Shown piece after piece: positions 30,373 to 52,724 of a stretch of DNA of 64,000 bases (position 1 is its first letter; each line of letters begins with the position of its first letter). The position numbers and the translations under genes are program-made. Under the pieces are notes generated by a model, which made no database searches, was not told where the DNA came from, and was given only the letters and a program-made list of their open reading frames with translations. Location of the stretch: the sequence record PZ166176.1; one strand, given 5' to 3'. Source of the stretch: a phage.

Positions 30373-30384
30373 TAAGGAGGTCAT

Positions 30385-31330: not shown

Positions 31331-31337
31331 TTTATTC

Positions 31338-31366: not shown

Positions 31367-31373
31367 GAGTGGT

Positions 31374-35391: not shown

Positions 35392-35421
35392 AATATTTCT
35401 CCTCTATTGGTTGATAGGTTA

Positions 35422-35474: not shown

Positions 35475-35481
35475 TTATTTA

Positions 35482-35754: not shown

Positions 35755-35763
35755 AATCTCTCC

Positions 35764-35982
35764 TTAACAGCTACTACTGTGCCAAACGCCTTGAGAATTA
35801 ACGACGAAACCATCATCACCTTCACCATAACAAGAAGAGGATTGCCAATCTTCAAAACAGATTGCGTCATTTTCTAAACTAAGACCAAAACCAGCATCTT
35901 CAGCTTCTTTTGTAAGTTCGTCCACTAAAGCCATAATAGCTTGGGCTTTTTCAGTTAATTCTTCAACATTACGATCACTCAT
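35764..35982 (-). CDS. small paralog with C-terminal W-x-SS-x-C motif, member 2
   Basis: Ends GVWHSSSC; internal ATG (MSDRNVEEL...) taken as start. Confidence 0.55.
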   Translation of the reverse strand: MSDRNVEELTEKAQAIMALVDELTKEAEDAGFGLSLENDAICFEDWQSSSCYGEGDDGFVVNSQGVWHSSSC

Positions 35983-36296
35983 TAGTATTTCTCCTCTGGT
36001 TGGAAAACTGAACGACAAGCCCACATACTAGCTTCTTTTAAATGTTTAATAGCACAACGGATTTGATCAATACGTTCGTATGTAAGATCTAATTCTTTTT
36101 CTGTGCCGTCAAAAGACCCATGATATGCTTCACAATACTCTTCCTCTAAAGCTTTGAAGATTAAACCTAAACGCTCTTCTGCATCTTTAATAGCGTTAAC
36201 CTTGCCAATCTTATCGTCAGTATGCGCCTTATAACCTTTGATATCTTCGATTCCCACTTTACCTCCTATTAACAACTTAAAGAAGATGGATGCCAA
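35982..36296 (-). CDS. hypothetical protein (104 aa)
   Basis: ORF. Confidence 0.6.
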   Translation of the reverse strand: MASIFFKLLIGGKVGIEDIKGYKAHTDDKIGKVNAIKDAEERLGLIFKALEEEYCEAYHGSFDGTEKELDLTYERIDQIRCAIKHLKEASMWACRSVFQPEEKY

Positions 36297-36466
36297 TTTG
36301 TTCCAGTATTCTCATTTTCATCTTCTGGATCATAATAGCCACCCATCCCATATTCAGGGGAGAAACGGAAACCTTTACCAGTCTCATCTGCTAACTGCTC
36401 TGCTTCCGCTAAAGCCTCATAAGCTGCTTTTACGGCTTCTTCTACTGTTTTAAACTTGGTCGTCAT
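36269..36466 (-). CDS. small paralog with C-terminal W-x-SS-x-C motif, member 3
   Basis: Ends NWHPSSLSC. Confidence 0.55.
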   Translation of the reverse strand: MTTKFKTVEEAVKAAYEALAEAEQLADETGKGFRFSPEYGMGGYYDPEDENENTGTNWHPSSLSC

Positions 36467-36740
36467 AAAATTTCTCCTCTCCTAAAGACATGTTGACATG
36501 AAATGCACGATATGTAAATTCGTTGTCCGTTGTGTTTGAATAAAACTCAAATTGAACAACACCGTCTTGAGAAGACAGATACATGCCAATTTGAACTGTT
36601 CCTTCTGGTACCAGGTAAGCATACTCTGGACGTAGTGTTACATTGTAAAAATAAAGTTCCCCAACACCCATTTCATCCCAAGCTTCCCAAGCGGTAACGA
36701 AGTTACTTTCAAAACTTGTTACTGATCCGAACTCTGCCAT
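36450..36740 (-). CDS. hypothetical protein (96 aa)
   Basis: ORF. Confidence 0.6.
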   Translation of the reverse strand: MAEFGSVTSFESNFVTAWEAWDEMGVGELYFYNVTLRPEYAYLVPEGTVQIGMYLSSQDGVVQFEFYSNTTDNEFTYRAFHVNMSLGEEKFYDDQV

Positions 36741-37231
36741 AAAACCTCCTCAATCTTGTAGTTTGACTCCATCTCCAACACATTTCCACGAACGTCTCTC
36801 CGAAGAAAGGCATAAGCTTTATTAGGTATTGTAGACTCATATTTAACCATATCTGGTACAGCAAAAGATACTACTACTCCTGCTGGGCTTCTGTCAAGAG
36901 CCTTATTAATATTTCTAAGGATATCGTTAGCCAAGATTTCTGCCAATTCTCCAAGAACGGTTTCGGTTATATCTTTATATCCCATTAAGTATTTGTTGAT
37001 ATCTTTCATCTCTGTATTGTTCAGAGTATAATCCAAAGGATAGAAATTCAAAGCGGAGTCACTTTTATGTGTCCACATGAAATGCACCCGATCCGAGCAG
37101 AATCGTAACCCTCTTTGAAGAATATCTTCTACAACAGGCAGAATTTCTTTTGTCACATCATTAACCATGTTGTAATCTAAGATTTCTGCCAAGTTTGTTC
37201 TTTGTTCACCACGTTTACGTTTAGGAATCAC
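36719..37231 (-). CDS. hypothetical protein (170 aa)
   Basis: ORF. Confidence 0.6.
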   Translation of the reverse strand: MIPKRKRGEQRTNLAEILDYNMVNDVTKEILPVVEDILQRGLRFCSDRVHFMWTHKSDSALNFYPLDYTLNNTEMKDINKYLMGYKDITETVLGELAEILANDILRNINKALDRSPAGVVVSFAVPDMVKYESTIPNKAYAFLRRDVRGNVLEMESNYKIEEVLWQSSDQ

Positions 37232-37802
37232 TTGTTATTGCCCTCATTACCAAAGGTCGTAGAAAATCGTAAATCTCTTGTTTTGTTTTCCCACGAATGT
37301 TTAAACAAGGAACATTATTGGCTTTAGCTATCTTCCAAGCCGTAGCTGTTCCACCTTTTGCATCTCCATGTTTATCAGTATTAGCACAAGCCAACAAGAA
37401 ACATGATGGAGCAGGATTCTCCAAATCTCTACCTAACACTTGATGCACATTACGTTGGTGCAATTTTCTAGCACCCTGCTTAAGCTTTTCATAGGCTGGG
37501 TGAACATCTTTGATCCATTGCACAGAAATAGCATAGTTCATTGTATCTGGTTTTGCAAGAACAATAACATCCCCTGGAATCTGATTACCTTTGAAATTTT
37601 CCCAAGGAACATAAATCTCCTTGTTAGTAGGATTTTCAGACTCTTGGACACCTGTTTCAAAAGCAGAATCACTACCCTCTGCCTTCCCAGACCTTAATTT
37701 AAACCCAAGGTTTGAAAGCCATTTCCCTATGCCTACCATCAAAGCCCACTCTTCTTCGGATATGTCTCTACTTCCAACTCCCGTATAGAACAGTTCTGCC
37801 AT
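37221..37802 (-). CDS. possible SLOG/DprA-LOG-like Rossmann-fold protein
   Basis: ATG at 37802 with SD gaggtga; motifs YTGVGSRD and RSGKAEGSDSAFETG resemble the GxGxR / SGGAxGxD signature; weak. Confidence 0.4.
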   Translation of the reverse strand: MAELFYTGVGSRDISEEEWALMVGIGKWLSNLGFKLRSGKAEGSDSAFETGVQESENPTNKEIYVPWENFKGNQIPGDVIVLAKPDTMNYAISVQWIKDVHPAYEKLKQGARKLHQRNVHQVLGRDLENPAPSCFLLACANTDKHGDAKGGTATAWKIAKANNVPCLNIRGKTKQEIYDFLRPLVMRAITSDS

Positions 37803-37809
37803 AATCACC

Positions 37810-38118
37810 TCAACAAGTAATTTCAAAAGGTGTATAGGGTTCCGTATTTCTCATGATCCAAGGACTGCTAGGATTGCTCGGATCATAAGGGCCAAAAGGT
37901 TTTATGGTAGGTTGTGTTTCTTTCTTCTGAATCTCTTCAAAAATACGACGAAGTTCAGAATATTCTTGATCCACCATAAGATTCGGTGCATCTGATTCTA
38001 CAGCTTGCAGGTTATCTTCCTTAAGAACAATCTCACGAACAAGATTAACATCTTCTGTTTCTAAGATAACTTCTTTACGGATATTGCCTACACTTTGAAT
38101 AATTGTAATCTTATACAT
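37810..38118 (-). CDS. hypothetical protein (102 aa)
   Basis: ORF. Confidence 0.6.
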   Translation of the reverse strand: MYKITIIQSVGNIRKEVILETEDVNLVREIVLKEDNLQAVESDAPNLMVDQEYSELRRIFEEIQKKETQPTIKPFGPYDPSNPSSPWIMRNTEPYTPFEITC

Positions 38119-38861
38119 TAATCCTCCTCAAGAGTTGAATAAAATTGAAGACCACCGTCCATATCGAAATAAGCAAATGTTAAGTTATTATTGAACACAG
38201 ATCCAGTATCCATATAAACACGATTCGCATTGATAATAGGTGTTTTTACATAAGAGTGTCCATGAAACACATAATCCACACCCATCACAACAGGAAGTTT
38301 CATTCCCTCTTTAGCACAATCCACCATATCTCTGTCCCACATAAGTGCTTCAGCAAAACGGTTTTCCTGTGTTTTTGTCATCTTCGAAGTGTATTCTGGA
38401 ATATCTGTTACAGGGAGATATTCCAAAGAAGACGGATACCCACCATGAATAAACGCAAGTTTCATGCCTCTGTAGTTAACAATGAGAACAACAGGTAAAT
38501 CTTCTGTCATCATTGCTAAGGCTGTAGCTCCTTCTTCACCACATTCTTCAAGGACCGTATATCCTCCATTTTGATACCAACACTCGAAGTAGCTACGATC
38601 TCCTTCCAGCATACCTTTAATCATCATGTCTTCATGATTTCCACGAATAGCGTAGCGATTGTGTTTACGAGTAAATTCTAAAACACAACGAAAGTTTTGC
38701 TTTCCACGGTCAGTAAGATCTCCTAGAGATACAACCACATCTGTATCTCGGATACCTAACTTTGCCTTTCCTTTTTCATACAAATTATAACAACCGTGTA
38801 GATCTCCAATTATAAAAAGATCTTGATCGCTTTTAACAGTAATTTCTCTGTGTATGATCAC
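38118..38861 (-). CDS. Ser/Thr protein phosphatase (calcineurin-like metallophosphoesterase)
   Basis: GDLHG, GDLTDRG, GNHE, GH motifs in canonical order. Confidence 0.8.
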   Translation of the reverse strand: MIIHREITVKSDQDLFIIGDLHGCYNLYEKGKAKLGIRDTDVVVSLGDLTDRGKQNFRCVLEFTRKHNRYAIRGNHEDMMIKGMLEGDRSYFECWYQNGGYTVLEECGEEGATALAMMTEDLPVVLIVNYRGMKLAFIHGGYPSSLEYLPVTDIPEYTSKMTKTQENRFAEALMWDRDMVDCAKEGMKLPVVMGVDYVFHGHSYVKTPIINANRVYMDTGSVFNNNLTFAYFDMDGGLQFYSTLEED

Positions 38862-39187
38862 TTATCCTCCTCAAAATCTAAGAAAATAAAAATATTCACC
38901 TTTCCTTCAATCTCTTGTTCTAAAACAAGATCGGCAAATTCTGCATAAGCTTTCTCTTCAACTTTTTCAATATGTTCTGCGGCATCTTTAAAAGGCGTAT
39001 CCCCATCCACCTTTACTAATAAGAAAAGAGATCGCATTTCGACGCTTTTACTGTTACGAGGAAGGAAATCTACAGCTTCAACAATTCTCCAACCCAAATA
39101 GCCAGGGGTTTTATGAATCTCCCCTAAATACTTTTCTAAGATTTTACGACCCTCGTCGATAAGGGCTTGTTCTGTAGTAATTTCCAT
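38858..39187 (-). CDS. hypothetical protein (109 aa)
   Basis: ORF. Confidence 0.6.
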   Translation of the reverse strand: MEITTEQALIDEGRKILEKYLGEIHKTPGYLGWRIVEAVDFLPRNSKSVEMRSLFLLVKVDGDTPFKDAAEHIEKVEEKAYAEFADLVLEQEIEGKVNIFIFLDFEEDK

Positions 39188-39197
39188 TCCTTCCTCC

Positions 39198-39788
39198 TCA
39201 AATTATTAACGAAACCGCATGACTAAATCTTGGTTCAGATATAACCTCTGCTACAGTCACATATGTATCGTGCAGCCAAAAAGATTCTACTCTACAAACA
39301 CAAATACCGTTGATAATGAAATCTATACAGGCTTTATTATTTTCGCACACTTGTTGACTATAAACAACTCCTAAAGAGTCATAAAGTGATCTCACTGTTG
39401 CTACCATTTCATCTGTTTCGTCTTCCTGTGAAACAAAGAAAACGAATACAGACAAGTTATTAGCGAAAGTATTGCTATTCTCTACTTCAACCGACTTACA
39501 AGGTAAAAAGGAGTAATATTTACCGTTAGGTATCAATTTCGCCTCAACCTGGTTAAGTACGCTTTGAGATGGTTTTGTTACATAAAAAAGATTTTCTGTT
39601 GGGTTTTCAACATTACTCCTTACTATGCAACGAGTGGGGTTCGAAGGATCAAAAACATGATCGAAATCGACACACACAGGTAAGTTAACAACTTTAAACT
39701 TTTTGCTAAGAATGCTTACTGCTGTAAAAATCAAACCAGCATTTATTTTGCCAGTGAAAGTTGAACGCATAACTACTCCTCGGATCAT
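39198..39788 (-). CDS. hypothetical protein (196 aa)
   Basis: ORF. Confidence 0.6.
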   Translation of the reverse strand: MIRGVVMRSTFTGKINAGLIFTAVSILSKKFKVVNLPVCVDFDHVFDPSNPTRCIVRSNVENPTENLFYVTKPSQSVLNQVEAKLIPNGKYYSFLPCKSVEVENSNTFANNLSVFVFFVSQEDETDEMVATVRSLYDSLGVVYSQQVCENNKACIDFIINGICVCRVESFWLHDTYVTVAEVISEPRFSHAVSLII

Positions 39789-39979
39789 TCTACCAAAGAG
39801 AATTCCGCCTCTTCCAGGTAGATTACAGACCTTGTTGCATGATATTTAACGCTCCAGAAATTACCTTCGCGCCGTAAAAGTATCTCATTCACATCAAGAT
39901 TGCTTAGAAAAACCATATAACTTAAAGCTTGTTGACGCGTTGAGAATTGTTTCTCTAAAAGTTCTTCTCCGCTCTGCAT
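39785..39979 (-). CDS. hypothetical protein (64 aa)
   Basis: ORF. Confidence 0.55.
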   Translation of the reverse strand: MQSGEELLEKQFSTRQQALSYMVFLSNLDVNEILLRREGNFWSVKYHATRSVIYLEEAEFSLVE

Positions 39980-40024
39980 AATCCCTCCTTAAAATACTCC
40001 CTCCGAAAAGGGAGTATAAGTATA

Positions 40025-40228
40025 TCACGTAGTTGTTATGTTGTCTTCTTGGATACTAGAATCCACTTCTGCAAACATATCTTCTGCACTGTAATTATTT
40101 CCAGTCCAGCGTGATAAAAGGATAGCACCAATCTCTTTTGCATGAGATTCGGACTCTGCATAAACGTTAGTCCCAGTGTCACCTTTTTTCTTTTCATGTG
40201 CATAAATGCAGTAATAATTGTAAGCCAT
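40025..40228 (-). CDS. hypothetical protein (67 aa)
   Basis: ORF. Confidence 0.55.
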   Translation of the reverse strand: MAYNYYCIYAHEKKKGDTGTNVYAESESHAKEIGAILLSRWTGNNYSAEDMFAEVDSSIQEDNITTT

Positions 40229-40464
40229 TAATCTTCCCAGTCATTGCCCTCGGTAGAGTGAACTAAAGCTCGCACGATACCACCGTAATCTACTGCCTGA
40301 TTTGCAGCATGTTCGGCATAAACTTCAATGGCTTTTTTGAAGAAAAGAGCAGTAGCTGCTTCAATATTATCCATTTCGCCATCTACGTCAGTAGAAAGTG
40401 AAAGGTTGAGGCTTTCATCTACTTCATCAAAATCAATAGCCACTGTCATAATTAGTTTACCCAT
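40228..40464 (-). CDS. hypothetical acidic protein (78 aa)
   Basis: ORF. Confidence 0.55.
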   Translation of the reverse strand: MGKLIMTVAIDFDEVDESLNLSLSTDVDGEMDNIEAATALFFKKAIEVYAEHAANQAVDYGGIVRALVHSTEGNDWED

Positions 40465-40476
40465 AGTTCACACTCC

Positions 40477-40986
40477 TTAAACAAAATAAAATGGTTGAGA
40501 GAGGCCCAAACGATTCTTTGGGTCGTATACATACCAAGCGTATGCTGTCTTATCTGTTCCACCTGCAACAAACGAAGGCCGTTCTGAAAGGACTATAAGG
40601 TTTGTTGGTGGATTCTTTTGATGGAACTCTCGTCGTTTCTTTGACTCCAAGAAGCCCAACCGAAGAAGATAAATACAAACATCCGCCTCTTTTAAGCTCT
40701 TTTCCAAGAACTCCATTGCTAACTTAAATGGAGGATTTGTGATTATAATGTCGGGACGATTTTCCCATTCATGACTAAAATAATCTTTACCTTCTTCAAG
40801 TTCGCAATATTCTGAACCTTCAGGAAAATGGCGATAAATCGCTTCAGCTTCACCTCTGCAAGGTTCTGCAAAAACCCAACCTTCTTCCTTTAGATTTTTG
40901 AAATCTATAACACTAAACAAACTATTGATTGCTTTTTGCGGTGTCGGATAATAATCGCTCGTTGGGCGATCATAATCTAATGCCAT
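40477..40986 (-). CDS. putative phage Dam-type DNA N6-adenine methyltransferase
   Basis: YYPTP, EPCRGE, DIIITNPPF (motif IV NPPF), ERPSF; size typical of the small phage Dam family. Confidence 0.6.
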   Translation of the reverse strand: MALDYDRPTSDYYPTPQKAINSLFSVIDFKNLKEEGWVFAEPCRGEAEAIYRHFPEGSEYCELEEGKDYFSHEWENRPDIIITNPPFKLAMEFLEKSLKEADVCIYLLRLGFLESKKRREFHQKNPPTNLIVLSERPSFVAGGTDKTAYAWYVYDPKNRLGLSQPFYFV

Positions 40987-41404
40987 CTAAAATCTCCTCT
41001 TTTGTAATATTATCCAACTCTTTAAAGGATGAAATCTCGTTTAATAATCCTATTTGATCAGCTTCTAGAGGATAAGTGTTTTTATCTGTTTTTCTAGACA
41101 GAATATCTTCAACAAACTTATCAATAGCCAAAGAAGAATCATAAAATTTTAAAAGTTGGTAATCCATAGGAGATATTTTGTCATCTCTTAGAAATATTTC
41201 TAACATGTTTTCAGGAGTGTCATGGTTTAGTTTATGTTCACCAAAAATATTAACTTCATAAACATCTTTGCCAAACCAACGTTTCTTCTTTTCAACAGTA
41301 TAGGTTTTTGCCACCAGACCATCTAAACAGTTTCTTGCCCTCTTACATGTTTGACGGTAAGAGTGGATAGCGCCTTCAACAAACTTAGCAGGAACTTGTA
41401 ACAT
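40970..41404 (-). CDS. hypothetical protein (144 aa)
   Basis: ORF. Confidence 0.6.
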   Translation of the reverse strand: MLQVPAKFVEGAIHSYRQTCKRARNCLDGLVAKTYTVEKKKRWFGKDVYEVNIFGEHKLNHDTPENMLEIFLRDDKISPMDYQLLKFYDSSLAIDKFVEDILSRKTDKNTYPLEADQIGLLNEISSFKELDNITKEEILDGIRL

Positions 41405-41427
41405 TATTAATCTCCTATGTTTAAGAA

Positions 41428-41445
41428 ATGCCCCCGAAGGGGCAG
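41428..41445 (-). other. UUCG-tetraloop GC hairpin between genes
   Basis: Minus strand reads GCCCCTTCGGGGGC. Confidence 0.45.
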
Positions 41446-41449
41446 TTTG

Positions 41450-42142
41450 TTAAATAGCGGTTCCTTCGAAATCCGCCACATTTACGAGATTAATATTTTC
41501 AGATTTAGAAGTCAAGTTGTTTTCTGCAACAGATTTTTCTTCAGTATCCGCCTCGTTACCTGCCACGTTACGAGGTTCTTCTTCACCGTAGGGATTACCG
41601 AATTTCAAAAGATTGATCAATTCTTCTTTGGAGAAGTTTTCTAAATCATCATCTGTTAATTCAATAATCTCGTCTTGTTCTTCAATAAATGTTTCACCAC
41701 CAGAAAAAGCATCTCGCTTTTTAGCTACTTCCATAGCCTGTTCTGGTGTTGCCCCTGCATCAAGAGCAGCTAAAGCAAAATCTGACCCACTCCCTACTGC
41801 ATAATATTCTTCATCAATCGGGTATGCACGTGTTGGGTTGTTACCTTCGTGCAGGAAAATACGTCCGTCTGGATGAACAACAAGTGCAATAAACTCTTCA
41901 TCTTCTTTATCTGGATCAGAGTGAATCATCAAACCAGGGACAGCATCACGTGCTGCTTCGCACTGTAGATTTTGTTCAAACCATTGAAAGAAAGAAAGCA
42001 CGGAGGTCAGACGACCAGCACCACCTACAAGGTAATCTCCAATTTTTCGGACCTTTTTGAAATTAATAGAATCTACACGCCCACCAAAAGTTACCTTACC
42101 GTCACTCAAAATCTTATTTTTGGTTGCAATAATTGTCGTCAC
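41450..42142 (-). CDS. HslV-like N-terminal-Thr peptidase with acidic C-terminal extension
   Basis: MTTIIATKNK (Thr2), KKVRKIGDYLVGGAG, AVGSGSDFALAALDAG match HslV blocks; about 60 extra acidic residues. Confidence 0.7.
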   Translation of the reverse strand: MTTIIATKNKILSDGKVTFGGRVDSINFKKVRKIGDYLVGGAGRLTSVLSFFQWFEQNLQCEAARDAVPGLMIHSDPDKEDEEFIALVVHPDGRIFLHEGNNPTRAYPIDEEYYAVGSGSDFALAALDAGATPEQAMEVAKKRDAFSGGETFIEEQDEIIELTDDDLENFSKEELINLLKFGNPYGEEEPRNVAGNEADTEEKSVAENNLTSKSENINLVNVADFEGTAI

Positions 42143-42645
42143 TATTCTTCCTCCTCTGTTAATGTTTTAAGAACCGCTTTCCCGCCATTCACATATTTGC
42201 AGATGTATTCTATCGCACGTAGTGTCTCTTTGTCAACAAAAATTTGATCAGACGTTGCGAGCGGGTTATTAAGAAGATCACTGCAATCACGAACAAGCAG
42301 TGCTTTCTTATTAAACAAATTACTTAAGAACAGTAACTTCGCCTCTTCTTCTGTTATGTGCAGAAGGCTAGGATCGGAGCCAGCTATTCCTATTATACAA
42401 TCAAACAAGCTTTCTTTACTATCAGAAAGTTCTTGAAAATGGTTTAAAAGCCAATCTTCTCCTAGACACCAACATTTAAACATTTCCAGTTTATCTCGGA
42501 GGGTCATATTCTCTAAAGTAAGAGCAATCTCTTTTTCAATATGGTTTACACAAATTTGACGAAATTCGTTAGGTTTTACGAGTCCCGTTTGATAGCACTC
42601 ATCTATACCGCTTCTTCCGATAGCTATTGTTGCTACACCCATCAA
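42142..42645 (-). CDS. hypothetical protein (167 aa)
   Basis: ORF. Confidence 0.6.
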   Translation of the reverse strand: MMGVATIAIGRSGIDECYQTGLVKPNEFRQICVNHIEKEIALTLENMTLRDKLEMFKCWCLGEDWLLNHFQELSDSKESLFDCIIGIAGSDPSLLHITEEEAKLLFLSNLFNKKALLVRDCSDLLNNPLATSDQIFVDKETLRAIEYICKYVNGGKAVLKTLTEEEE

Positions 42646-42677
42646 TCCTCCTTATAAATGGCTTCCCTGCCACATTA

Positions 42678-43436
42678 TTAAATAAACACTTCAGTAATCA
42701 GTTTAGACAAACGTCCACGTTTATTATCGTCCGTTGTCAGTTCAACATATCCAATAAAATCTACAATTGGCTCACGAACACCTTCTTCATTCTCTGGATA
42801 TAAAAGTTCCAAAATTTGATGCAGACCATTGCTACGTTTTTTAATTGCATATGTCTGGCGAACATCGCCTAATACAATAACATGCGTATTAATACCTGCA
42901 CGTTCAATAAGAAGTTTAAGTGTTTCTGTTGACATAAGTTGTGCTTCGTCAATAATGACGATTGTATTATCCAGGGTGGCCCCCAACAAATAGTTAGGAA
43001 TATTCAATTCGATCTTACCTGATCCAATATCGTTTTCCAATTTGTTGGCTGTCATGAATTGCTGGAAAATACGTTTTGTAGATTCATAGTGTGCTGCTAG
43101 TTTATCTGTTTTATCCCCAGACAAGAAACCAATCTGGTCATCTCCGACTTCAGTAGGGTTCTTGATAAAAAGTAGTTTACGGAAGTCTCCTGAACGAAGC
43201 ATCTGCAAAGCTTTCCATAAAGCAACAGAGGTTTTACCAGTCCCTGCCGGAGCATTTACAACAGTCAGATCATTCCAAATCATGCTTTGAACAATCTTAT
43301 TTTGGTCCCCTTCAGGCATAAATTCATCTAAACGGTAATCGTCATTACCTACCGCTTTTGCTGCATAACGGCTTTCAATCTTTGCTGAATTAGCCAGTTT
43401 CTGCCGTTGTGTTTTAGCTGCGGTTTTATTTCCCAT
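42678..43436 (-). CDS. phoH: PhoH-like ATPase
   Basis: Walker A NAPAGTGKT, Walker B VIIDEAQ; ATG at 43436 with SD aaaggag downstream of the hairpin. Confidence 0.8.
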   Translation of the reverse strand: MGNKTAAKTQRQKLANSAKIESRYAAKAVGNDDYRLDEFMPEGDQNKIVQSMIWNDLTVVNAPAGTGKTSVALWKALQMLRSGDFRKLLFIKNPTEVGDDQIGFLSGDKTDKLAAHYESTKRIFQQFMTANKLENDIGSGKIELNIPNYLLGATLDNTIVIIDEAQLMSTETLKLLIERAGINTHVIVLGDVRQTYAIKKRSNGLHQILELLYPENEEGVREPIVDFIGYVELTTDDNKRGRLSKLITEVFI

Positions 43437-43451
43437 AGTAGCACTCCTTTT

Positions 43452-43472
43452 AGAAGGGGCCGAAGCCCCTTT
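43452..43472 (-). other. UUCG-tetraloop GC hairpin between lysozyme and phoH
   Basis: Minus strand reads GGGGCTTCGGCCCC with no U tract after it. Confidence 0.45.
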
Positions 43473-43473
43473 A

Positions 43474-43974
43474 TTAGTTGTAAGCATCTAAAGTTCCAGA
43501 AGTCAGAACTTTAATTACTCGTTCAGCACGGTTTGGCGTCTGGCTATACCATCGGCTTTTACGCATGTTTTTACCTGCTTGAGTATAATATGCATTGCTG
43601 ATTAAAGTCAAGCTATTTTGAAACCCTTCAGCACCTTTTAACCCCAACTGGAAAACCATGTTAATTATTCCCAATTTACGAGTATCACTAACCTTATCAT
43701 AGATTGGTGATAAGATAGTACTGTTTTTTATGTCTCTCTTCACTTTTGCAACATCGTCAGCAAAGATTTGACGGGCTTCTTTTTCCGTGATAACTCCATT
43801 AGTCTTACGACCAAGAAGATTATCTAAGATTTGAATAGCCTTTGCTTTATCTTTTATTTTAGTCAGAAGGTGTCCTATGCCGACTGTCCAATAACCAAGA
43901 TGGTCTTGATAAACAGTAAGCTTCAGTCCTTCATCGACTCGTAGCATATCAAACTCATCTACTACTTTAGCCAT
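43474..43974 (-). CDS. e: T4-type lysozyme (endolysin)
   Basis: MLRVDEGLKLTVYQDHLGYWTVGIGHLLTK, GRKTNGVITEKEA, INMVFQLG, KSRWYSQTPNRAERVIKVLTSGTLDAY parallel T4 lysozyme. Confidence 0.9.
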   Translation of the reverse strand: MAKVVDEFDMLRVDEGLKLTVYQDHLGYWTVGIGHLLTKIKDKAKAIQILDNLLGRKTNGVITEKEARQIFADDVAKVKRDIKNSTILSPIYDKVSDTRKLGIINMVFQLGLKGAEGFQNSLTLISNAYYTQAGKNMRKSRWYSQTPNRAERVIKVLTSGTLDAYN

Positions 43975-44136: not shown

Positions 44137-44397
44137 TTACTCCGCAATTTGAGCCATGAGATCACGCAGTTCGGTAAAACCGCCTACGTATGTTACCTCC
44201 CCGTTCACTTCGGACAGAATTTGTGGAAATGTGCGTGGAGGAACTCCGGTAAGATCAACAACTGTTTTAGTCATTGATTCTAAATCATAGTCTTGATCAA
44301 GACTTAAATATTCAAACTGTTTATTGCGCATGGTTAATAGTTGTTTTGACATTTCACAAAATTGACAGTTAGGTTTACCAAAAATTACAAATTCCAT
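44137..44397 (-). CDS. glutaredoxin-like protein
   Basis: 86 aa, CQFC active-site motif near the N-terminus; sits with nrdAB. Confidence 0.7.
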   Translation of the reverse strand: MEFVIFGKPNCQFCEMSKQLLTMRNKQFEYLSLDQDYDLESMTKTVVDLTGVPPRTFPQILSEVNGEVTYVGGFTELRDLMAQIAE

Positions 44398-45239
44398 TAC
44401 CTCTCCTTATTAAGTAATACTGCTAAAGACTGTTCAATACCTTTATTTAAATCTGATTTTGTAAGATAGTGACTGGTTACTAGTTGTGACTTCACCGGAC
44501 GTGCTGCTGGAGCATTATAGGTTGAAGCTGATACCGCCGATATCTTAACAGGTTCTGGCATCTGTGTCAAGATCTTTTCCGCAAACTCCGCCCAAGAAAT
44601 AAGATGGCTTCCTGCAAAATGGTAAGTCTTAACAGACCTTGACCAACCTGTTTTTAATACTTCAAAAATAGCTTCTGCTAAATCTGGAGCATATGTTGGA
44701 CAAGAGAACTGATCAGCAACAATAATAAAATCACGTTGTCCATCATTATAGCGAGACAACATGGTTTTTAGAAAGTTATTTCCAAATTCGCTATATACCG
44801 AGGCTGTTCGAATAATATATGCATTTGGGTTAACTCCTCGCACCATTTTTTCACCAAGTTCTTTCGTATACCCATAATTGTTTATTGGGTTAGGTGTAGT
44901 ATCTTCAAAAATAGGATGAGAATAATTAAAAATATAGTCTGTGGAAATATGCACAAAATCGATTTTAAGTTTGCTGCACACTGCCGCAATATTTGCAGGT
45001 CCATACGCATTAACAGCCAAAGCAGTAGCAAAATCATGTTCTGCTTTATCTACAGCCGTATAAGCGGCGCAATTAATAACCCCATCTACATAATCTTCAA
45101 CAATAGCGTTTCGCACAGCTTCAAAATTTGTAATATCTACACGTTCTTTAGGATAAATTAAAGATACATTTGAAGGAACCACTTTACGTAAAGCTTGTCC
45201 CAGTTGTCCATTACCACCCAATACCAGATATGTTAGCAT
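44397..45239 (-). CDS. rmlD: dTDP-4-dehydrorhamnose reductase (RmlD)
   Basis: GGNGQLG, AAYTAVDKAE, STDYIF, YGYTK, GNNFLKTML, ADQFSCPT, ARPVKSQL align with E. coli RmlD blocks. Confidence 0.8.
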   Translation of the reverse strand: MLTYLVLGGNGQLGQALRKVVPSNVSLIYPKERVDITNFEAVRNAIVEDYVDGVINCAAYTAVDKAEHDFATALAVNAYGPANIAAVCSKLKIDFVHISTDYIFNYSHPIFEDTTPNPINNYGYTKELGEKMVRGVNPNAYIIRTASVYSEFGNNFLKTMLSRYNDGQRDFIIVADQFSCPTYAPDLAEAIFEVLKTGWSRSVKTYHFAGSHLISWAEFAEKILTQMPEPVKISAVSASTYNAPAARPVKSQLVTSHYLTKSDLNKGIEQSLAVLLNKER

Positions 45240-45799
45240 ACACCCTCGCTACGTAACTGTTGAAAAGATTTAGCCATTGCATCTTTTGTTGATAAAATAG
45301 GTTTAAAACCTTCGTCAAAAATCATATCGAAGCCCCAATCAATCCCTATATCAGGATCATCCCAACGTAAACTTTGTTCACTAGAAGGGTCGTATGGAGT
45401 TGTGCATTTGTATTCAAAGATCGCATCCATACTCAAAACTATGAAACCATGTGCCAAACCAGGAGGAAGCCAAAACTGCGTATGGTGTCGTGCACGAAGA
45501 ACAACACCGTCCCAAGCACCGTAAGTTGGGCTATCTTTACGTAAATCTACAGCGAAATCCAATACTTCCCCACTTACACAACGAACAAGCTTACCTTGCG
45601 GATTATTTGTTTGAAAATGCATTCCTCGCAAAACACCGAAGTTTGATTTAGACATATTATCTTGAACGAAAGTTTGTTTACCAATGATATCTTCGTATTT
45701 TTGTTCATTGTATGTTTCTAAAAAGAAACCACGATCATCTTTATAAACGTCTGGTTTGATAATTACCGCACCTTCAATTTTTGTTTTTTCTACTTTCAT
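45233..45799 (-). CDS. rmlC: dTDP-4-dehydrorhamnose 3,5-epimerase (RmlC)
   Basis: DDRGFFLET, RGMHFQ, QGKLVRCVSGEVLDFAVDLRKDSPTYG, PPGLAHGF, RWDDPDIGIDW align with RmlC. Confidence 0.85.
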   Translation of the reverse strand: MKVEKTKIEGAVIIKPDVYKDDRGFFLETYNEQKYEDIIGKQTFVQDNMSKSNFGVLRGMHFQTNNPQGKLVRCVSGEVLDFAVDLRKDSPTYGAWDGVVLRARHHTQFWLPPGLAHGFIVLSMDAIFEYKCTTPYDPSSEQSLRWDDPDIGIDWGFDMIFDEGFKPILSTKDAMAKSFQQLRSEGVC

Positions 45800-45808
45800 T
45801 TTCTCTCC

Positions 45809-46135
45809 TTACCAGACGTGTTGAGAAATAATAGTTTCCGTTTTAATATTATATTTTTCAAGTAGCTCTGCATAGGCTTCTTTTGCATTCTCATTCAATT
45901 GCTCAAGATCTACAGCTATGCTTCCTTCTCCGCCTTCTAAATCAAGGCCGTATATGCAATAAGACTCATCCGCATCGTAGAAAGGAGAGATGCGGCTTAA
46001 GTCCAGACCTTCTTGTAAGAACCAGTTAAAATCTCCATCAAATTCTTCTTCAATTCTAGGATCTTCTCCTACAGCCTCTTCCCACTTATTAAAAGGTGCA
46101 CCCTGTAACATACGCCATTCGATATCAATACCCAT
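45809..46135 (-). CDS. hypothetical acidic protein (108 aa)
   Basis: SD gaggag. Confidence 0.6.
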   Translation of the reverse strand: MGIDIEWRMLQGAPFNKWEEAVGEDPRIEEEFDGDFNWFLQEGLDLSRISPFYDADESYCIYGLDLEGGEGSIAVDLEQLNENAKEAYAELLEKYNIKTETIISQHVW

Positions 46136-46289
46136 TTTTCATCTCCTCCTCTTCTTGAGCAGCTTTAATAATTGCTTCATAAATATCGTAAGCAATGCCT
46201 CCACAACATCTAGCTTCGAAAGCTATTGCTTCTGCAATGTGATCTGTTAATTCTCGTGGAATGCGGACATACTCTTTTTCACTCTCCAT
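46125..46289 (-). CDS. 54-aa small protein
   Basis: MESEKEYVRIPRELTDHIAEAIAFEARCCGG...; overlap-coupled on both sides. Confidence 0.4.
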   Translation of the reverse strand: MESEKEYVRIPRELTDHIAEAIAFEARCCGGIAYDIYEAIIKAAQEEEEMKNGY

Positions 46290-46431
46290 CTTCTACCTCC
46301 AACCCTTCTTTTTCAAAGACTACTACTCGTCCCTCACCATGACAATTCAGGCAAGGAAATGTTACCATAATTTCCACTTCCATCTGTCCAGTCCCACCGC
46401 ACACAGGACAAAAAATAAGTTTTTCAGCCAT
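46279..46431 (-). CDS. 50-aa zinc-ribbon small protein
   Basis: MAEKLIFCPVCGGTGQMEVEIMVTFPCLNCHGEGRVVVFEKEG; TAATG overlap with the upstream gene. Confidence 0.5.
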   Translation of the reverse strand: MAEKLIFCPVCGGTGQMEVEIMVTFPCLNCHGEGRVVVFEKEGLEVEDGE

Positions 46432-46640
46432 TATTCCTCCTTAATTATTTCAAACTTGGCAACACCATTTACAATAATATGACCACAAGACATAACTCCT
46501 AGCCAAGGATCGCCGTTTTTCTTCCGGCGTTTACCGAATACATCACAAAAACCATTCTTCATTTCGGAGGCTTCATAAGAAGCCCCTTTGTCAAAAACGT
46601 CTTTGAATGTGTCGATTATACCAACACATCTCAAAATCAT
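46431..46640 (-). CDS. hypothetical protein (69 aa)
   Basis: ORF coupled to nrdB. Confidence 0.55.
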   Translation of the reverse strand: MILRCVGIIDTFKDVFDKGASYEASEMKNGFCDVFGKRRKKNGDPWLGVMSCGHIIVNGVAKFEIIKEE

Positions 46641-47725
46641 TAGAAGTCAAGCTCCTCATCATCAGAGAGATCTTTGTTAGCTGAATTCAATTTGTAATTA
46701 GTTAACTGAATCTCTTGGGCTGCTGACTGAATCAAATCAGGATTCAACCATTTTTCCATCCAAGCTAAAGGACTATGTTTAGGTGCTTTAAACTTGGCTT
46801 TCATTTTCAATCGACGATAAATAGGAGCAGCATTGAAATAAACCCACTGTTTAGACAATTCGGCGTTAAGACCTACAATAAAACGACCTTCACTAAACAG
46901 GTAGTCACACCACTGTTCCTCTTGTTCAACAACAGTGTCGAGGATCAAAGTCAACTCTTCAATATTGTCTTCGTAAATTTTACGCCAAATTGGGTCATGC
47001 ATCAATGCATCAATTACAGCATAATCCATCTTAACATGCAAGATTTCATCTAGCATAATTTTCTGGATCAGTTTACAAGCCCCAACAAACAGTTGTTGTT
47101 CTGCCATAGCAAAAGTAGCAGAGAAGGAAGATATAAACTGAATACCTTCTAATCCAATCAGGGCTACCATCCCTTTAAGAATCAGCAATCGAAGTTCATC
47201 GTTAGCTTCAATCAATCCTAGAGCATACTTATGACCAGCTTCTTCCAACTGACCCATGATATCAGCAATGATACCCATACGATTGAAAATTTTATCATTA
47301 ATCATAATCTGATTGATGACTTCAATTGGATCTGGAGTACATTGACGGATTATTTCAGAATACGTTAACGCATGGAGAACTTCCATTTCACTCTGCTTCA
47401 TCATCATAGCACAGGCTTCATTGTTACTCAAGAATGGAGAGAACAAAGTGATGATTGATTTTGCAAGAGAATCATTTTCCCATTGGAACGATAAGTTTTT
47501 AATCATAACATCGTAGTTGTTTTTAGAACAAGCTACGAAATCTTTACGTGTCTGATCCAGATTAACTTCGTTTTCATCCCAATCTTGTGCTTTTTGAAGC
47601 TTGTAGAGTTTGTGCATTTCTGGGTAAGTTACGTTAACAGAATCAAAGATCCCTAATTGCTCCCCCAAAAATACTGGATATTTTCCTGTTTTGTAAACTT
47701 CATTGTGTAAATTAATTGCTGCCAT
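46640..47725 (-). CDS. nrdB: ribonucleotide reductase class Ia small subunit (NrdB)
   Basis: 361 aa, ferritin-like family; C-terminal acidic tail DDEELDF typical of the R2 tail; SD ggagga. Confidence 0.85.
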   Translation of the reverse strand: MAAINLHNEVYKTGKYPVFLGEQLGIFDSVNVTYPEMHKLYKLQKAQDWDENEVNLDQTRKDFVACSKNNYDVMIKNLSFQWENDSLAKSIITLFSPFLSNNEACAMMMKQSEMEVLHALTYSEIIRQCTPDPIEVINQIMINDKIFNRMGIIADIMGQLEEAGHKYALGLIEANDELRLLILKGMVALIGLEGIQFISSFSATFAMAEQQLFVGACKLIQKIMLDEILHVKMDYAVIDALMHDPIWRKIYEDNIEELTLILDTVVEQEEQWCDYLFSEGRFIVGLNAELSKQWVYFNAAPIYRRLKMKAKFKAPKHSPLAWMEKWLNPDLIQSAAQEIQLTNYKLNSANKDLSDDEELDF

Positions 47726-48050
47726 TTAAATCCTCCACTATTTCACAAAAACCTCTTAAGCTTAAAATATCTTCTTCCTCAAAATCATTGCTCCGGTAGA
47801 AAGCTTCCAGTGCTTCCCATACGCTTCTACCAAGTATAACAGTCACTGTTTCTTCACTTCTTGCCCTTGTTATTGCGTAAGCCGTGGCTTCTGGATAAAA
47901 AGATTCCCAAATCTGCATGTTAGCTATTTCAAGACCGCCAAGATAATGGTGGCACCAAGTAGGGGTAAAATCTTCAGGGCGAATCAACAGAGGCTTAAAC
48001 CCAGGTCGGTAGATTGGGGTTACTCCAGGTAAAACTATAAGTGTGCTCAT
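47712..48050 (-). CDS. hypothetical protein between nrdA and nrdB (113 aa)
   Basis: ATG at 48050 with SD gaggagg; the track start at 48119 would overlap the nrdA 3' end and the hairpin. Confidence 0.55.
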   Translation of the reverse strand: MSTLIVLPGVTPIYRPGFKPLLIRPEDFTPTWCHHYLGGLEIANMQIWESFYPEATAYAITRARSEETVTVILGRSVWEALEAFYRSNDFEEEDILSLRGFCEIVEDLNGSN

Positions 48051-48059
48051 AATCCTCCT

Positions 48060-48085
48060 CAATAAAAAGGGGCTGAAGCCCCTAG
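48060..48085 (-). terminator. GC hairpin with U-run after nrdA (terminator or attenuator)
   Basis: Minus strand reads GGGGCTTCAGCCCC then tttttatt. Confidence 0.5.
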
Positions 48086-48090
48086 TTTCA

Positions 48091-50331
48091 TCACATTTTG
48101 CAAGCTTCACAACCACCATCAGAATCTTCTTGTGCTAAAGAGTCTGCTGATTTTGTTCTACTATTAAGGTAATACAATGACTTGCCACCCAGTCTGGCAA
48201 AATTCAGAATAAACTGCATCTCAGCTTTCACTGATAAACGTCCACCTACCAATTTAGAATAATCTAGCCAAGAATCACAAGAAATTCCTTGGTCCGTGAA
48301 TTTGGTAAAGATACCATACATTTCTGCAAGATCTTTAGCCGGAGTATCCCAGGCGGATTGGTAGAACATTTTCAGTTTTTCGTAGTCTGGAACAATAAAT
48401 AATACACTACCTTTCTGACTTTGTTTATACATGATAGTATCACGAACAGGATACAGAGAGTTAGTAGTATTGCTTACCAAACTGCTGGACTCATTAGGTG
48501 CAATAGCAGCCAAGACACTGTTACGGATACCACCTTGTTCAATGATTTCAGCACGTAAGCCTTCCCAGTCCATTTTAAGATCAAAATTACCGATACTATC
48601 TACTGTTTTAGCATAAGTGTCAATTGGTAGCCAACCTTGAGGCCATTTGGTCTTATCGATCCACTCTGCATTACCTTTTTCCTTAGCCAGACGCAGAGAG
48701 GCTTTTGCCAACCAAAAGTAATGACGTTCTGCAAGTTCATGCATTAATTTTTTAGCATAAGCATCTGAATAATTTACAAAATTACTTGCCAAGTAATGCG
48801 CTAAGTTTGTAATGCCTACACCAATAGATCTACGTGCTTTAGCAGTTATTTCGTTATGTTTAAATGGATAATCCATTGTTTCAATAACGTTGTCAATTGT
48901 CAATACAGTGTAGTATGCAACATCCTCATATTCTTCAGGTAAGACACGACCAGCCACAATAGAAGATAAGAAGCATAAAGCCAATTCTTGATCTTCTGTA
49001 TTCTCACCAGTAAAGAGATCCGGCATACTGTGGAAAGCTTTAGTTGGTAAGAAGATCTCTTGACACAGGTTTGATTGATACACCGTATCCAGGAAAGGTG
49101 TATGGTTGTTAACGTTGTCAGCAAAGAACATGTAAATACGTCCTGTTTCTGCACGTTGAACAATAATCTCTGTCAGAAGATCACGAGCCTTAACAAATTT
49201 TTTCTTAATGCGACGACGGCTTACTTTGTCATAAACTGCATCAAACTCTTCTTCACTTTTATACAAAGCTTCATAAAGTTCAGGAGCATCATCACAACTA
49301 ACTAACATCCAATCTTCGTTTTTTGCTGCTCGACGCAAGAACGAACGGTTAACAACAATAGAATAATCCAGTTTGTCTACTCGTTTATCTATAGGTGTTG
49401 TTGGATTCTTCAGTCGAATCAGATCGTCGAAGTCTGGTTCAAGTATGGTAAAGGTAACTGTAGCACTACCTCCACGACTTGCTTGCTTCGAAGCTCCAAC
49501 ACTATCTTCCATCCATTTCAGATACGGAAGAAGACCACCATGAATAATACGATTATTCTTAACACCTTGACCTGTGGCACGAGTTTGAAGATTAACACCA
49601 ATACCTGCGTTATTCAACGTATACTCATGAGCTAAGTAATTAGCAATGGCTAAAGACTCTGCCGTATCGTCTGCACGGAATAAACAACAAGACGCACTTC
49701 CTTTGATTGGAGTTCGTAGAGTTGTCAGATACGGCGATGGCAGATTAATCTTAAGATCGCTAACATAAGTATAAAGTTTTTTAATATCTTCTATACGGCG
49801 TTCTTTTGGTTGGATCTCCATAACCTTCATTGCGATACCAATGAAAAGAAACTGTGGAGACTCATGCACCACATCGTTTACTGCATCTCGAATAAGATAT
49901 TTATCTACCATCTGGCGTAAAACAGAATAACCATAAGTTAGATTTTTATTATGCTTTACAATCTTACCGATTTCTTTGATCTCTTCATCAGTATAATCCA
50001 TTTTAGCCCAATGTCCACGTTCTACCATATCATGATAAAAGGTATTCAGTGAAGGGATACTGTGGTATCCCCCATGAGCCTGTTTGTAAATCATACCCAG
50101 AAGAAGTCTTCCTGCCATATCACTGTAAGCTTGTGTTTTCTTGTCAATACACGCTGCAATCATTGCTTTATGCAGATCACGTGTAGACACACCGTCATAA
50201 CACCGCTTCACAGCTTCTAATTCAATTTCAGACCAGTTTAGTTTACCTGCTGCAAATTCAGACCACTTGCGAAGTTTTTCTGGATTAAACTCCTCTGTCT
50301 TACCATTAGATTTAGTTACAAAACGAATCAA
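48091..50331 (-). CDS. nrdA: ribonucleotide reductase class Ia large subunit (NrdA)
   Basis: 746 aa; N-terminal ATP-cone region, SASCCLFRAD-type block, C-terminal CEACKM redox pair; TTG start after GGGAGGAG. Confidence 0.9.
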   Translation of the reverse strand: MIRFVTKSNGKTEEFNPEKLRKWSEFAAGKLNWSEIELEAVKRCYDGVSTRDLHKAMIAACIDKKTQAYSDMAGRLLLGMIYKQAHGGYHSIPSLNTFYHDMVERGHWAKMDYTDEEIKEIGKIVKHNKNLTYGYSVLRQMVDKYLIRDAVNDVVHESPQFLFIGIAMKVMEIQPKERRIEDIKKLYTYVSDLKINLPSPYLTTLRTPIKGSASCCLFRADDTAESLAIANYLAHEYTLNNAGIGVNLQTRATGQGVKNNRIIHGGLLPYLKWMEDSVGASKQASRGGSATVTFTILEPDFDDLIRLKNPTTPIDKRVDKLDYSIVVNRSFLRRAAKNEDWMLVSCDDAPELYEALYKSEEEFDAVYDKVSRRRIKKKFVKARDLLTEIIVQRAETGRIYMFFADNVNNHTPFLDTVYQSNLCQEIFLPTKAFHSMPDLFTGENTEDQELALCFLSSIVAGRVLPEEYEDVAYYTVLTIDNVIETMDYPFKHNEITAKARRSIGVGITNLAHYLASNFVNYSDAYAKKLMHELAERHYFWLAKASLRLAKEKGNAEWIDKTKWPQGWLPIDTYAKTVDSIGNFDLKMDWEGLRAEIIEQGGIRNSVLAAIAPNESSSLVSNTTNSLYPVRDTIMYKQSQKGSVLFIVPDYEKLKMFYQSAWDTPAKDLAEMYGIFTKFTDQGISCDSWLDYSKLVGGRLSVKAEMQFILNFARLGGKSLYYLNSRTKSADSLAQEDSDGGCEACKM

Positions 50332-51107: not shown

Positions 51108-52106
51108 TCACCATTTAGTATGATTTGTTAAAAGTTGACGATGTTGAATCCAGCCTTTGAAATTGCCAGACCAAAACTTACCATTACGATCTACATGGGT
51201 AATACCTGGTTCCCAAGAGTTAAAATCCCAAGGAGCATTGATAAACAAATCTTCAAAACAGTTCTCTCCATATTGTTCGTATGTTTCTTGAATTGGAGTG
51301 GCCTGATGTTCAAACGGAGAAGCATGAACCTTGCGCCCAGTCAGCAAGCGACCATAAATATCTAAAGCTTTATCTTTAGTTGCATTTAAACGACGATAGC
51401 TAACCTGTGCACAACATGAAGCTGAAATAGCTTTGGCTTCTTCCAAAGTAAGCACAACAACTTCTCCAGATTCATCTTGAACGTAGTATCCACCAAAAAC
51501 AAAATGATCGTCACCTTCTGTGCCAATATTATCGTAGAAATGGTCTACATAAGGTGTGTGCCATTGCCCTGGTTTCAGCACTTCTGGTGTAGATCCTTCA
51601 TACTCTTTGTGCATCTCTTTAGCCAAAGCTTCGATAGTAGGATCGGCTTCTTTGTCATCACGTAGCCACCAGAAATTTTCATATTCTGTTGCTGTCAGAA
51701 CTGTTTTAATTCGTTGGAAAGGTTCCAGAAGACGGTTTGCAACTTGTTTGTGGTACCCTGCCAAAGAGAATTCTTCTGCAAAACGTGCTGCACTAAGCGC
51801 GGCAAGATCCCACCACTCTTGAGCAGTATAACCTGCATCAATAAGAGCGTCATGATCAACACCTTTATCCTGCATACCAGGTTGGTTAGCCCCAAAACGA
51901 TAAGGACGAGCAGGTTGATTTCGCACCATTTCAATCAGTGTTTTAACAGGTATAGCACGGCTAGAAGCAGCATTACGACTAAACAGGCGGTGAGTCATCA
52001 ATTCTGAATGAATAATACGTGGATATTCTAGTTCAAAAGTTACAATCTCTTTTCCGTCTTCAGTGATGGAATGCGCAATAATACTAGCCGAAATCTGTTT
52101 TGTCAT
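51108..52106 (-). CDS. ThyX-like flavin-dependent thymidylate synthase family protein
   Basis: SELMTHRLFSRNAASSRAIP fits the ThyX RHR-x7-S-x-R signature except Thr replaces the first Arg; 332 aa is long for ThyX. Confidence 0.5.
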   Translation of the reverse strand: MTKQISASIIAHSITEDGKEIVTFELEYPRIIHSELMTHRLFSRNAASSRAIPVKTLIEMVRNQPARPYRFGANQPGMQDKGVDHDALIDAGYTAQEWWDLAALSAARFAEEFSLAGYHKQVANRLLEPFQRIKTVLTATEYENFWWLRDDKEADPTIEALAKEMHKEYEGSTPEVLKPGQWHTPYVDHFYDNIGTEGDDHFVFGGYYVQDESGEVVVLTLEEAKAISASCCAQVSYRRLNATKDKALDIYGRLLTGRKVHASPFEHQATPIQETYEQYGENCFEDLFINAPWDFNSWEPGITHVDRNGKFWSGNFKGWIQHRQLLTNHTKW

Positions 52107-52115: not shown

Positions 52116-52724
52116 TTAGTTTTTAAAATTGTTCAAAGTGTTAAAAACATCCAAACATGTTAGCCACTGATCTTCTAAACCTGTGATCACAACATTTGGT
52201 TTTTTCTTTAGTTCTTCTAGATGGTTATCTTTATAAGGCGTATTAAAATATATTTTAACCACTTCATCTGGAAAATATAGTAGGTTATCAGCCCTGTCAT
52301 CTATTGCTATATCACAAGGCAATAAGTATTTTTCTTTCGTAGCAAAAAAGCCGTTACCAGATCCTTTGCTAAAATCAATCGTATCTAACGTTCTTAAAAC
52401 ATGCTTATGTTTAGAACTTAAGTGACCACCTTTTGTCACACTTGCGATCAAAAGATTGCTACCTTTCCTTGAAACATACTTTAAGAAATCTGGCATACCT
52501 GGAACAAAACCCATTGTATCATAGAGATGAGGATTATCCAGAAATCCGTAAGGATCTATATTGAACTCCTCCCTGAAACCAGGAAAGTAGTTGGTAAGAT
52601 CATAGTCTGCATTTTTTGTGAATGTGTCTATCTTAACACCAAGTCCACTAATCTTATTCAACCATTCTAACCAAGCAACATCTAATGGAGCCACAACTAA
52701 ATCCCAATCACATACTATCTGCAT
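52116..52724 (-). CDS. HAD-superfamily phosphatase, putative 5'(3')-deoxyribonucleotidase
   Basis: N-terminal VCDWDLV (DxDxV motif I), distal IDDR; context in a nucleotide-metabolism cluster. Confidence 0.45.
   Translation of the reverse strand: MQIVCDWDLVVAPLDVAWLEWLNKISGLGVKIDTFTKNADYDLTNYFPGFREEFNIDPYGFLDNPHLYDTMGFVPGMPDFLKYVSRKGSNLLIASVTKGGHLSSKHKHVLRTLDTIDFSKGSGNGFFATKEKYLLPCDIAIDDRADNLLYFPDEVVKIYFNTPYKDNHLEELKKKPNVVITGLEDQWLTCLDVFNTLNNFKN

Follow-up and report, generated by a model that had tools for sequence, protein, structure and literature searches.

Positions 44,397 to 45,799 of a 64,000-nucleotide stretch of phage DNA (sequence record PZ166176.1, called the window below at its full length) carry rmlC and rmlD, genes for the last two steps of deoxythymidine diphosphate (dTDP)-L-rhamnose synthesis. 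No rmlA or rmlB accompanies them, which raises the question of why a virulent phage would keep half of a sugar-nucleotide pathway. Our best explanation, which we consider probable as a whole, is that the locus is a deletion form of an rmlBACD cassette, and that RmlC and RmlD are fed by the host and make dTDP-L-rhamnose for glycosyltransferases of the phage. The prediction that both enzymes are still active is part of this explanation and carries the same confidence.

45233-45799, minus strand: rmlC, dTDP-4-dehydrorhamnose 3,5-epimerase, 188 amino acids (TIGR01221, PF00908, phrog_8784)
44397-45239, minus strand: rmlD, dTDP-4-dehydrorhamnose reductase, 280 amino acids (TIGR01214, PF04321)

The window comes from a phAPEC8-like myovirus of the genus Phapecoctavirus, subfamily Stephanstirmvirinae, whose genomes are about 150 kb. 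The region was 98-99% identical to Phapecoctavirus 536P1 and Escherichia phages Mt1B1_P17 and ESCO37, and 127 phage records matched it. In near-identical public genomes rmlC and rmlD are already annotated as dTDP-4-dehydrorhamnose 3,5-epimerase and reductase, and the RmlC protein was 100% identical to the annotated RmlC of SF1-1, ESCO37 and Mt1B1_P17. The identification of the genes itself adds nothing new, as both are annotated in GenBank and the pathway is discussed in two papers.

Family membership was judged by the cut-offs of the curated NCBI equivalog models (NCBIfam). RmlC scored 225.3 bits against TIGR01221 (cut-off 155.75) with model positions 1-174 of 176 covered, and RmlD passed TIGR01214 by a slim margin (238.2 bits, cut-off 224.05). 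The Pfam matches were PF00908 for RmlC (E=7.8e-67) and PF04321 for RmlD (E=2.6e-73). Both proteins aligned end to end with solved enzymes of their own kind in the PDB, RmlC with E=7e-56 and RmlD with E=4e-44; the weaker matches of RmlC included related mono-epimerases. The catalytic His61 (base), Lys70 and Tyr130 (acid) of RmlC were found in RGxHxQ, QGKLVR and YKC motifs that align with solved RmlC structures. RmlD has an N-terminal dinucleotide site, G8xxG11xxG14, and the triad of the short-chain dehydrogenases/reductases (SDR), Thr100 and Y122xxxK126, aligning with 3SC6 and 1VL0. Judged by these models and motifs, the two genes encode genuine, intact members of the RmlC and RmlD families, and the first-pass annotation of this DNA had placed both open reading frames (ORFs) at exactly these coordinates.

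The likeness to bacterial RmlABCD (rfbBDAC in E. coli; solved RmlC 1DZR, solved RmlD 1KBZ, 3SC6 and 1VL0) lies in the equivalog models passed and the catalytic residues kept. Window RmlC was 50% identical to RfbC of E. coli K-12, whereas RmlD was only 31% identical to RfbD, and the RmlD structures 3SC6 and 1VL0 outscored 1KBZ. The phage differs in encoding the last two steps only, and its genes lie in an early/middle operon of a virulent phage, whereas rfbBDAC lies in the O-antigen cluster.

No RmlA was found by tblastn in the window or in positions 1-148000 of the about 99% identical Mt1B1_P17 with phage RmlA and E. coli RffH and RfbA as queries. Phage RmlB and E. coli RffG and RfbB detected in the window and Mt1B1_P17 only a distant SDR similarity to RmlD (E=5e-5). 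The lack of both genes, which had been noticed for the window, was thus confirmed there and extended to the rest of a near-identical genome. The place where they would be expected is the following junction:

45800-45808, minus strand: 9-nt spacer GGAGAGAAA from the stop of the 108-amino-acid ORF to the rmlC ATG, the deletion junction, holding a single fused GGAGA ribosome-binding site
45809-46135, minus strand: 108-amino-acid ORF without assigned function (phrog_15453), conserved as the gene that bounds the rml cassette upstream

In phAPEC8, ASO2A, ESCO13, ukendt, SKA64 and others (48 records), rmlB-rmlA-rmlC-rmlD lie between the 108-amino-acid ORF and the glutaredoxin gene grx. The same four-gene cassette was present in the more divergent phiWec and PsgM04F phages and in phi92 of the sister genus Justusliebigvirus. 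Homologs of the 108-amino-acid ORF stand just upstream of rmlB, directly in phAPEC8 (phAPEC8_00104) and with a small gene, gp068, in between in phi92 (gp069). Since the phAPEC8 group, the phiWec and PsgM04F phages and phi92 all have rmlBACD, we take the four-gene cassette to be ancestral. The window shares with the phAPEC8 and phi92 cassettes the locus, gene order and orientation, and its rmlC and rmlD were 97.4% and 99.1% identical in DNA to those of phAPEC8 (99.5% for the RmlC protein); it differs in that rmlB and rmlA, kept there, are deleted.

Four-gene phages have one GGAGA ribosome-binding site before rmlB and another before rmlC, 1,876 bp apart, and the window has one fused copy, TAAGGAGAGAAA followed by the ATG. 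An identical fused junction was found in all 11 two-gene phages examined (the window and 10 others), and 22 phage records (the window and 21 others) span it. In a neighbour-joining tree of rmlC plus rmlD, the ten two-gene sequences formed one clade nested among four-gene phages. The shared junction and the single nested clade indicate one event, apparently a microhomology-mediated deletion of 1,876 bp that took exactly rmlB and rmlA and spared the ribosome-binding site of rmlC. This loss is recent. Phapecoctavirus DIJ07P2 (OZ035771.1; at about 4350-4358 of the examined stretch) lost about 0.8 kb in a second, independent event, by which codon 305 of rmlB is fused out of frame to codon 240 of rmlA while rmlC and rmlD are intact. 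From these sequences, rmlBA has been lost at least twice. The first-pass annotation had also considered that the pair was recruited into a different nucleotide-sugar route, an assumption that is not needed because the gap is a deletion from an ancestral rmlBACD.

Phapecoctaviruses have been described as having a complete rhamnose pathway (Olsen et al. 2020, PMC7552041). Two phages of that study, nepoznato and anhysbys, are two-gene forms, and the two-gene variant seems to have gone without comment so far.

Two further observations concern the cassette and its boundary. In comparisons of the phAPEC8 group with the phiWec/PsgM04F group, DNA identity was 86-93% in rmlB-rmlA, about 71% in rmlC and about 66% in rmlD, and about 80% and 76% in nrdB and grx. 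This mosaic pattern suggests that the two halves of the cassette differ in their history, either because of recombination or because their rates are very unequal. In phage WPEC2, the homolog of the 108-amino-acid ORF lacked 4 nt and was annotated as two separate small ORFs (about 4160-4495 of the examined stretch), probably by a frameshift or a sequencing error; rmlC and rmlD were unaffected.

Both retained genes were intact in every close relative examined. Within the two-gene clade (45 pairs), synonymous divergence (dS) was 0.10 for rmlC and 0.04 for rmlD, and the ratio of nonsynonymous to synonymous divergence (dN/dS) was 0.024 and 0.111, respectively, indistinguishable from the ratios in four-gene phages (0.026 and 0.087). 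Among the variable codons of rmlC, 29 had synonymous changes only and 4 had amino-acid changes. rmlC and rmlD have been under purifying selection since the loss of rmlB and rmlA. With rmlBA lost at least twice and rmlC and rmlD kept under selection, it follows that the phage has a use for dTDP-rhamnose or a close isomer. The partial pathway is thereby a clean natural knock-out of rmlB and rmlA.

The missing substrate is available in the host. E. coli K-12 has RffG and RffH, paralogs of RmlB and RmlA, in the enterobacterial common antigen (ECA) cluster beside WecE, which according to pathway annotation uses the same intermediate as RmlC, dTDP-4-keto-6-deoxy-D-glucose; K-12 also carries rfbBDAC in its O-antigen cluster. 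By blastn in distant mode, rffG-rffH were present in 5426 of 5426 complete E. coli genomes, versus at least 2348 with rfbC-like and at least 2386 with rfbD-like sequences (about 44%), the latter counts being lower bounds given the sensitivity of blastn. As RmlA and RmlB of the four-gene phages resemble RffH (65% identity) and RffG (50% identity), the lost genes appear to have duplicated a universal host function. The retained genes, on the same genome survey, would supply steps that more than half of potential E. coli hosts lack. Completion of a host sugar-nucleotide pathway, one of the roles suggested by the first-pass annotation, was therefore the most plausible of its proposals.

These results can be combined into the following mechanism. 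An ancestor would have had the complete cassette between the 108-amino-acid ORF and grx, and in one lineage recombination between the GGAGA sites before rmlB and rmlC would have removed 1,876 bp and left the rmlC site intact. RffH and RffG of the host, or RfbA and RfbB where they are present, would make dTDP-4-keto-6-deoxy-D-glucose. RmlC would then carry out the 3,5-epimerisation and RmlD the NAD(P)H-dependent 4-reduction, giving dTDP-L-rhamnose in any host (the stereochemistry is predicted), independently of whether the host O-serotype provides RmlC and RmlD. The phage glycosyltransferase cluster described below would, with less certainty, use this donor to build a short rhamnose-containing glycan, most likely on a protein, plausibly a virion protein, rather than on DNA. 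Two-gene and four-gene phages offer a ready-made experimental contrast on rff and rfb host mutants.

Candidate consumers of dTDP-rhamnose were found in the near-identical genomes. In Mt1B1_P17, gp102-gp105 (45046-48190) form a run of four genes with glycosyltransferase annotations. This cluster is conserved in the near-identical relatives and is flanked on one side by endolysin and Ter-domain genes and on the other by the primase-helicase and DNA polymerase genes. The first-pass annotation had proposed to search the rest of the genome for rmlA and rmlB or glycosyltransferases; the latter part succeeded in these genomes and the former did not. gp102 (RDxDT, LFRxSL) and gp103 (FDDDC, YGxED) are GT-A-like, and gp104 and gp105 are GT-B paralogs with 41% identity. 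No convincing membrane segment was found in any of the four, and they had no solved or curated relatives. The tblastn record sets of the GT-B gene and RmlC matched (65 each at 95% identity or more; 66 versus 67 at 60-80%), and none of the sampled matches were rV5-like Vequintavirinae. Because this co-occurrence is at clade level, it is weak evidence for a link. Two caveats apply to our explanation: RmlD exceeds its equivalog cut-off only narrowly, and gp102-gp105 lie outside the window and were seen in near-identical relatives, so that the link between Rml and glycosyltransferases, like the acceptor, is inferred. A literature search found no experimental study of these Rml or glycosyltransferase proteins.

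Homologs in other genomes carry more weight than this co-occurrence: genes similar to gp102, gp103 and gp104 occur together as a conserved module in phages and prophages unrelated to this group. We sampled nine contexts outside Stephanstirmvirinae, seven in phages or prophages and two chromosomal. A 66-kb phage contig and the prophages of Pseudomonas silvicola, Enterobacter huaxiensis and Serratia have the module just upstream of their terminase and head genes; a prophage of Pseudomonas alliivorans has it among the structural genes, with the major capsid gene directly before it. A nucleotide-sugar enzyme was found in or beside the module in three of the nine contexts: Enterobacter has an RmlB-like SDR (TIGR01181, 179.6 bits, below the cut-off), a 78-kb phage contig has an SDR epimerase/dehydratase, and a 94-kb contig encodes a cytidylyltransferase-like protein.

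Chromosomal GT-B homologs of Burkholderia dolosa (7205-8440 of the stretch) and Trinickia symbiotica (8001-9026) lie beside an invasin/intimin-type adhesin, which suggests adhesin glycosylation; these loci also hold a protein of 555-571 amino acids of unknown function. In Mt1B1_P17, a Ter-type cluster (TerC membrane protein, TelA-like, vWA-TerF-like, TerD and a hydrolase; 33600-43800) is found a little way upstream of the glycosyltransferases, separated from them by the endolysin and a few small ORFs, and this neighbourhood recurs in a more distant contig.

The genes around the cassette are as follows.

44137-44397, minus strand: glutaredoxin gene grx, 86 amino acids (PF00462, E=1.8e-9), the downstream boundary of the cassette
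46640-47725: nrdB
48091-50331: nrdA

The glutaredoxin and nrdAB neighbours named in the first-pass annotation are real, and grx has the same position in all relatives, including phi92. The start of grx overlaps the rmlD stop by 1 nt (TAATG) and the start of rmlD overlaps the end of rmlC by 7 nt; from this layout rmlC, rmlD and grx are predicted to be translationally coupled. Convincing terminator-like hairpins on the minus strand were found only at 48083-48068, just past nrdA, and at 41444-41429. The unit that includes rmlC and rmlD therefore extends from nrdB through grx to genes for lysozyme, PhoH and an HslV-like peptidase. It had been argued that a position inside a nucleotide-metabolism operon fits a nucleotide-linked role, an argument that is weak because lysozyme, PhoH and the peptidase share the unit. 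Both the end of nrdA and the start of nrdB are overlapped by a 135-amino-acid ORF (47712-48119, minus strand), inside which a GC-rich terminator-like hairpin closely follows the stop codon of nrdA; in relatives this stretch is annotated variously as 135 amino acids, as 112 amino acids, or as nothing with a 45-nt gap.

Several other roles of RmlC and RmlD have to be weighed. The two genes might be a decaying remnant, useless after the loss of rmlBA and simply not eroded yet, as the incomplete pathway and the repeated loss of rmlBA could suggest. This is very improbable, since both ORFs stayed intact in all two-gene phages examined despite a synonymous divergence of 0.04-0.10, with dN/dS as in four-gene phages and the codon pattern of rmlC given above, the ribosome-binding site and translational coupling were preserved, the host supplies the substrate, and none among more than 130 Stephanstirmvirinae-type records appears to be without RmlC, judged from matching counts. 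Control of the nucleotide pool would require no glycosyl transfer at all. dTDP-L-rhamnose is an allosteric inhibitor of RmlA, and its synthesis could feed back on host glucose-1-phosphate thymidylyltransferases and save dTTP, which would account for the last two steps being sufficient and agrees with the shared transcription of the pair with nrdAB, grx and thyX. However, the cassette in its ancestral and still common form also encodes RmlA and RmlB, which consume dTTP, and neither the strict co-occurrence with a conserved glycosyltransferase cluster nor the presence of other sugar-nucleotide enzymes beside such clusters in unrelated phages would be explained; we regard this role as improbable. 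Remodelling of the host envelope is less remote but still unlikely. Here host dTDP-sugar flux would be redirected so that O-antigen, ECA or other rhamnose or Fuc4NAc glycans are altered or depleted, for example to exclude superinfecting phages or to prevent re-adsorption of progeny to debris. Alteration of the O-antigen, the example given in the first-pass annotation, gained no specific support from the analysis. Such a role is consistent with the competition of RmlC with WecE for dTDP-4-keto-6-deoxy-D-glucose, with the recognition of surface glycans by many tail fibres in this group, with the PHROGs class of RmlC and the glycosyltransferases ("moron, auxiliary metabolic gene and host takeover"), and with the prophage module between lysis genes and terminase. 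It fits poorly with the lack of convincing membrane segments and of Gtr-type or Wzx/Wzy-type partners, with the short time that a virulent phage has to change an existing envelope, and with the ancestral rmlA and rmlB, which raise rather than drain the dTDP-sugar supply; moreover, it is the NGR glycan and not ECA that is now assigned as the primary receptor in the relatives.

If the glycosyltransferases do use dTDP-rhamnose, the acceptor could be DNA or protein. The phage could attach rhamnose to a modified base of its DNA, for example a hydroxymethylated pyrimidine, and so shield the DNA from host nucleases as T4 does with glucose. T-even phages glucosylate their DNA by means of a dCMP hydroxymethylase and alpha- and beta-glucosyltransferases. 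Here, no ThyA-family match was found by tblastn across the whole genome (best E=0.55), the thymidylate synthase of the window is of the ThyX type, and no hydroxymethylase or TET/JBP enzyme was annotated (TET/JBP being judged by annotation only). The donor would be a dTDP-6-deoxyhexose, whereas T-even phages use UDP-glucose, and the transferases differ from those of T-even phages in numbering three to four and in including GT-A types. DNA glycosylation, which the first-pass annotation had proposed, has been published before as a speculation (Olsen et al. 2020, PMC7552041). Maffei et al. 2021 (PMC8594841) describe a "putative dTDP glycosylation machinery" in related phi92-like phages and nevertheless report them to be "exceptionally susceptible" to restriction-modification. 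The same glycosyltransferase module also lies beside head genes in small temperate phages. We thus consider DNA an improbable acceptor, and a protein is preferred because of the lack of ThyA and hydroxymethylase, the restriction sensitivity, and the module beside head genes. That the acceptor is a protein, plausibly a virion protein, is itself a tentative reading with a less than even chance, favoured because the prophage homologs of the module sit by head genes and sugar-nucleotide enzymes. It is possible, though we would not expect it, that phages with the gp102/103/104 module, namely Stephanstirmvirinae and many temperate phages of Enterobacterales and Pseudomonas, generally attach a short glycan that contains rhamnose to one of their virion proteins, Rml ensuring the donor in any host.

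gp103 was also considered as a DNA glycosyltransferase, on sub-threshold matches to TAGT and phrog_842 (beta-glucosyl-HMC-transferase) that covered only about 40 residues. These matches are weak and appear to reflect generic GT-A similarity; the glycosyltransferases had generic GT4 and GT2 folds, with T4 AGT ranking 20th.

Capsid glycosylation by A64R is known from chloroviruses. Mycobacteriophage virions are reportedly glycosylated as well (Freeman et al. 2023, as cited in other papers). In comparison, the system here is known within Stephanstirmvirinae from its genes, and its glycosyltransferase cluster in Phapecoctavirus lies away from the structural module (endolysin/Ter to primase), unlike in known virion glycosylation systems, to which a virus-encoded dTDP-sugar supply would be an added feature. 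If true, decoration of the virion would be the first virion glycosylation system described in coliphages and would bear on stability, host recognition and immune recognition of therapeutic phages. Phages of this group are widely used in therapy cocktails owing to their broad host range, which makes a glycosylated virion practically relevant, and the conserved glycosyltransferase module is the place to look for the acceptor.

Some other features were observed in the window and its relatives. The ThyX-type thymidylate synthase (51108-52106, minus strand, 332 amino acids) is longer than usual and matched Pfam Thy1 with E=5e-8 over residues 22-174 only; after thyX comes an NT5C-like deoxynucleotidase (52116-52724), and a MazG/PRA-PH-like pyrophosphohydrolase is encoded at 57516-58241. 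At about 30000-31400 the GC skew flips, positive before about 30 kb and negative after, where the coding strand turns from plus to minus, which marks the boundary of two oppositely oriented gene blocks. A Sir2-family protein (31374-32189, minus strand, E=1e-22) and a NADAR-domain protein (623-1165, plus strand, E=8e-36) are candidates for counter-defence functions related to NAD+/ADP-ribose. Near-identical Phapecoctavirus and Justusliebigvirus genomes are filed as phages of Acinetobacter, Campylobacter, Pseudomonas or Serratia (OP562383, MG065650, OR584014 and others); the host labels of these records look unreliable, or the phages look to have been carried over from enterobacterial contaminants.

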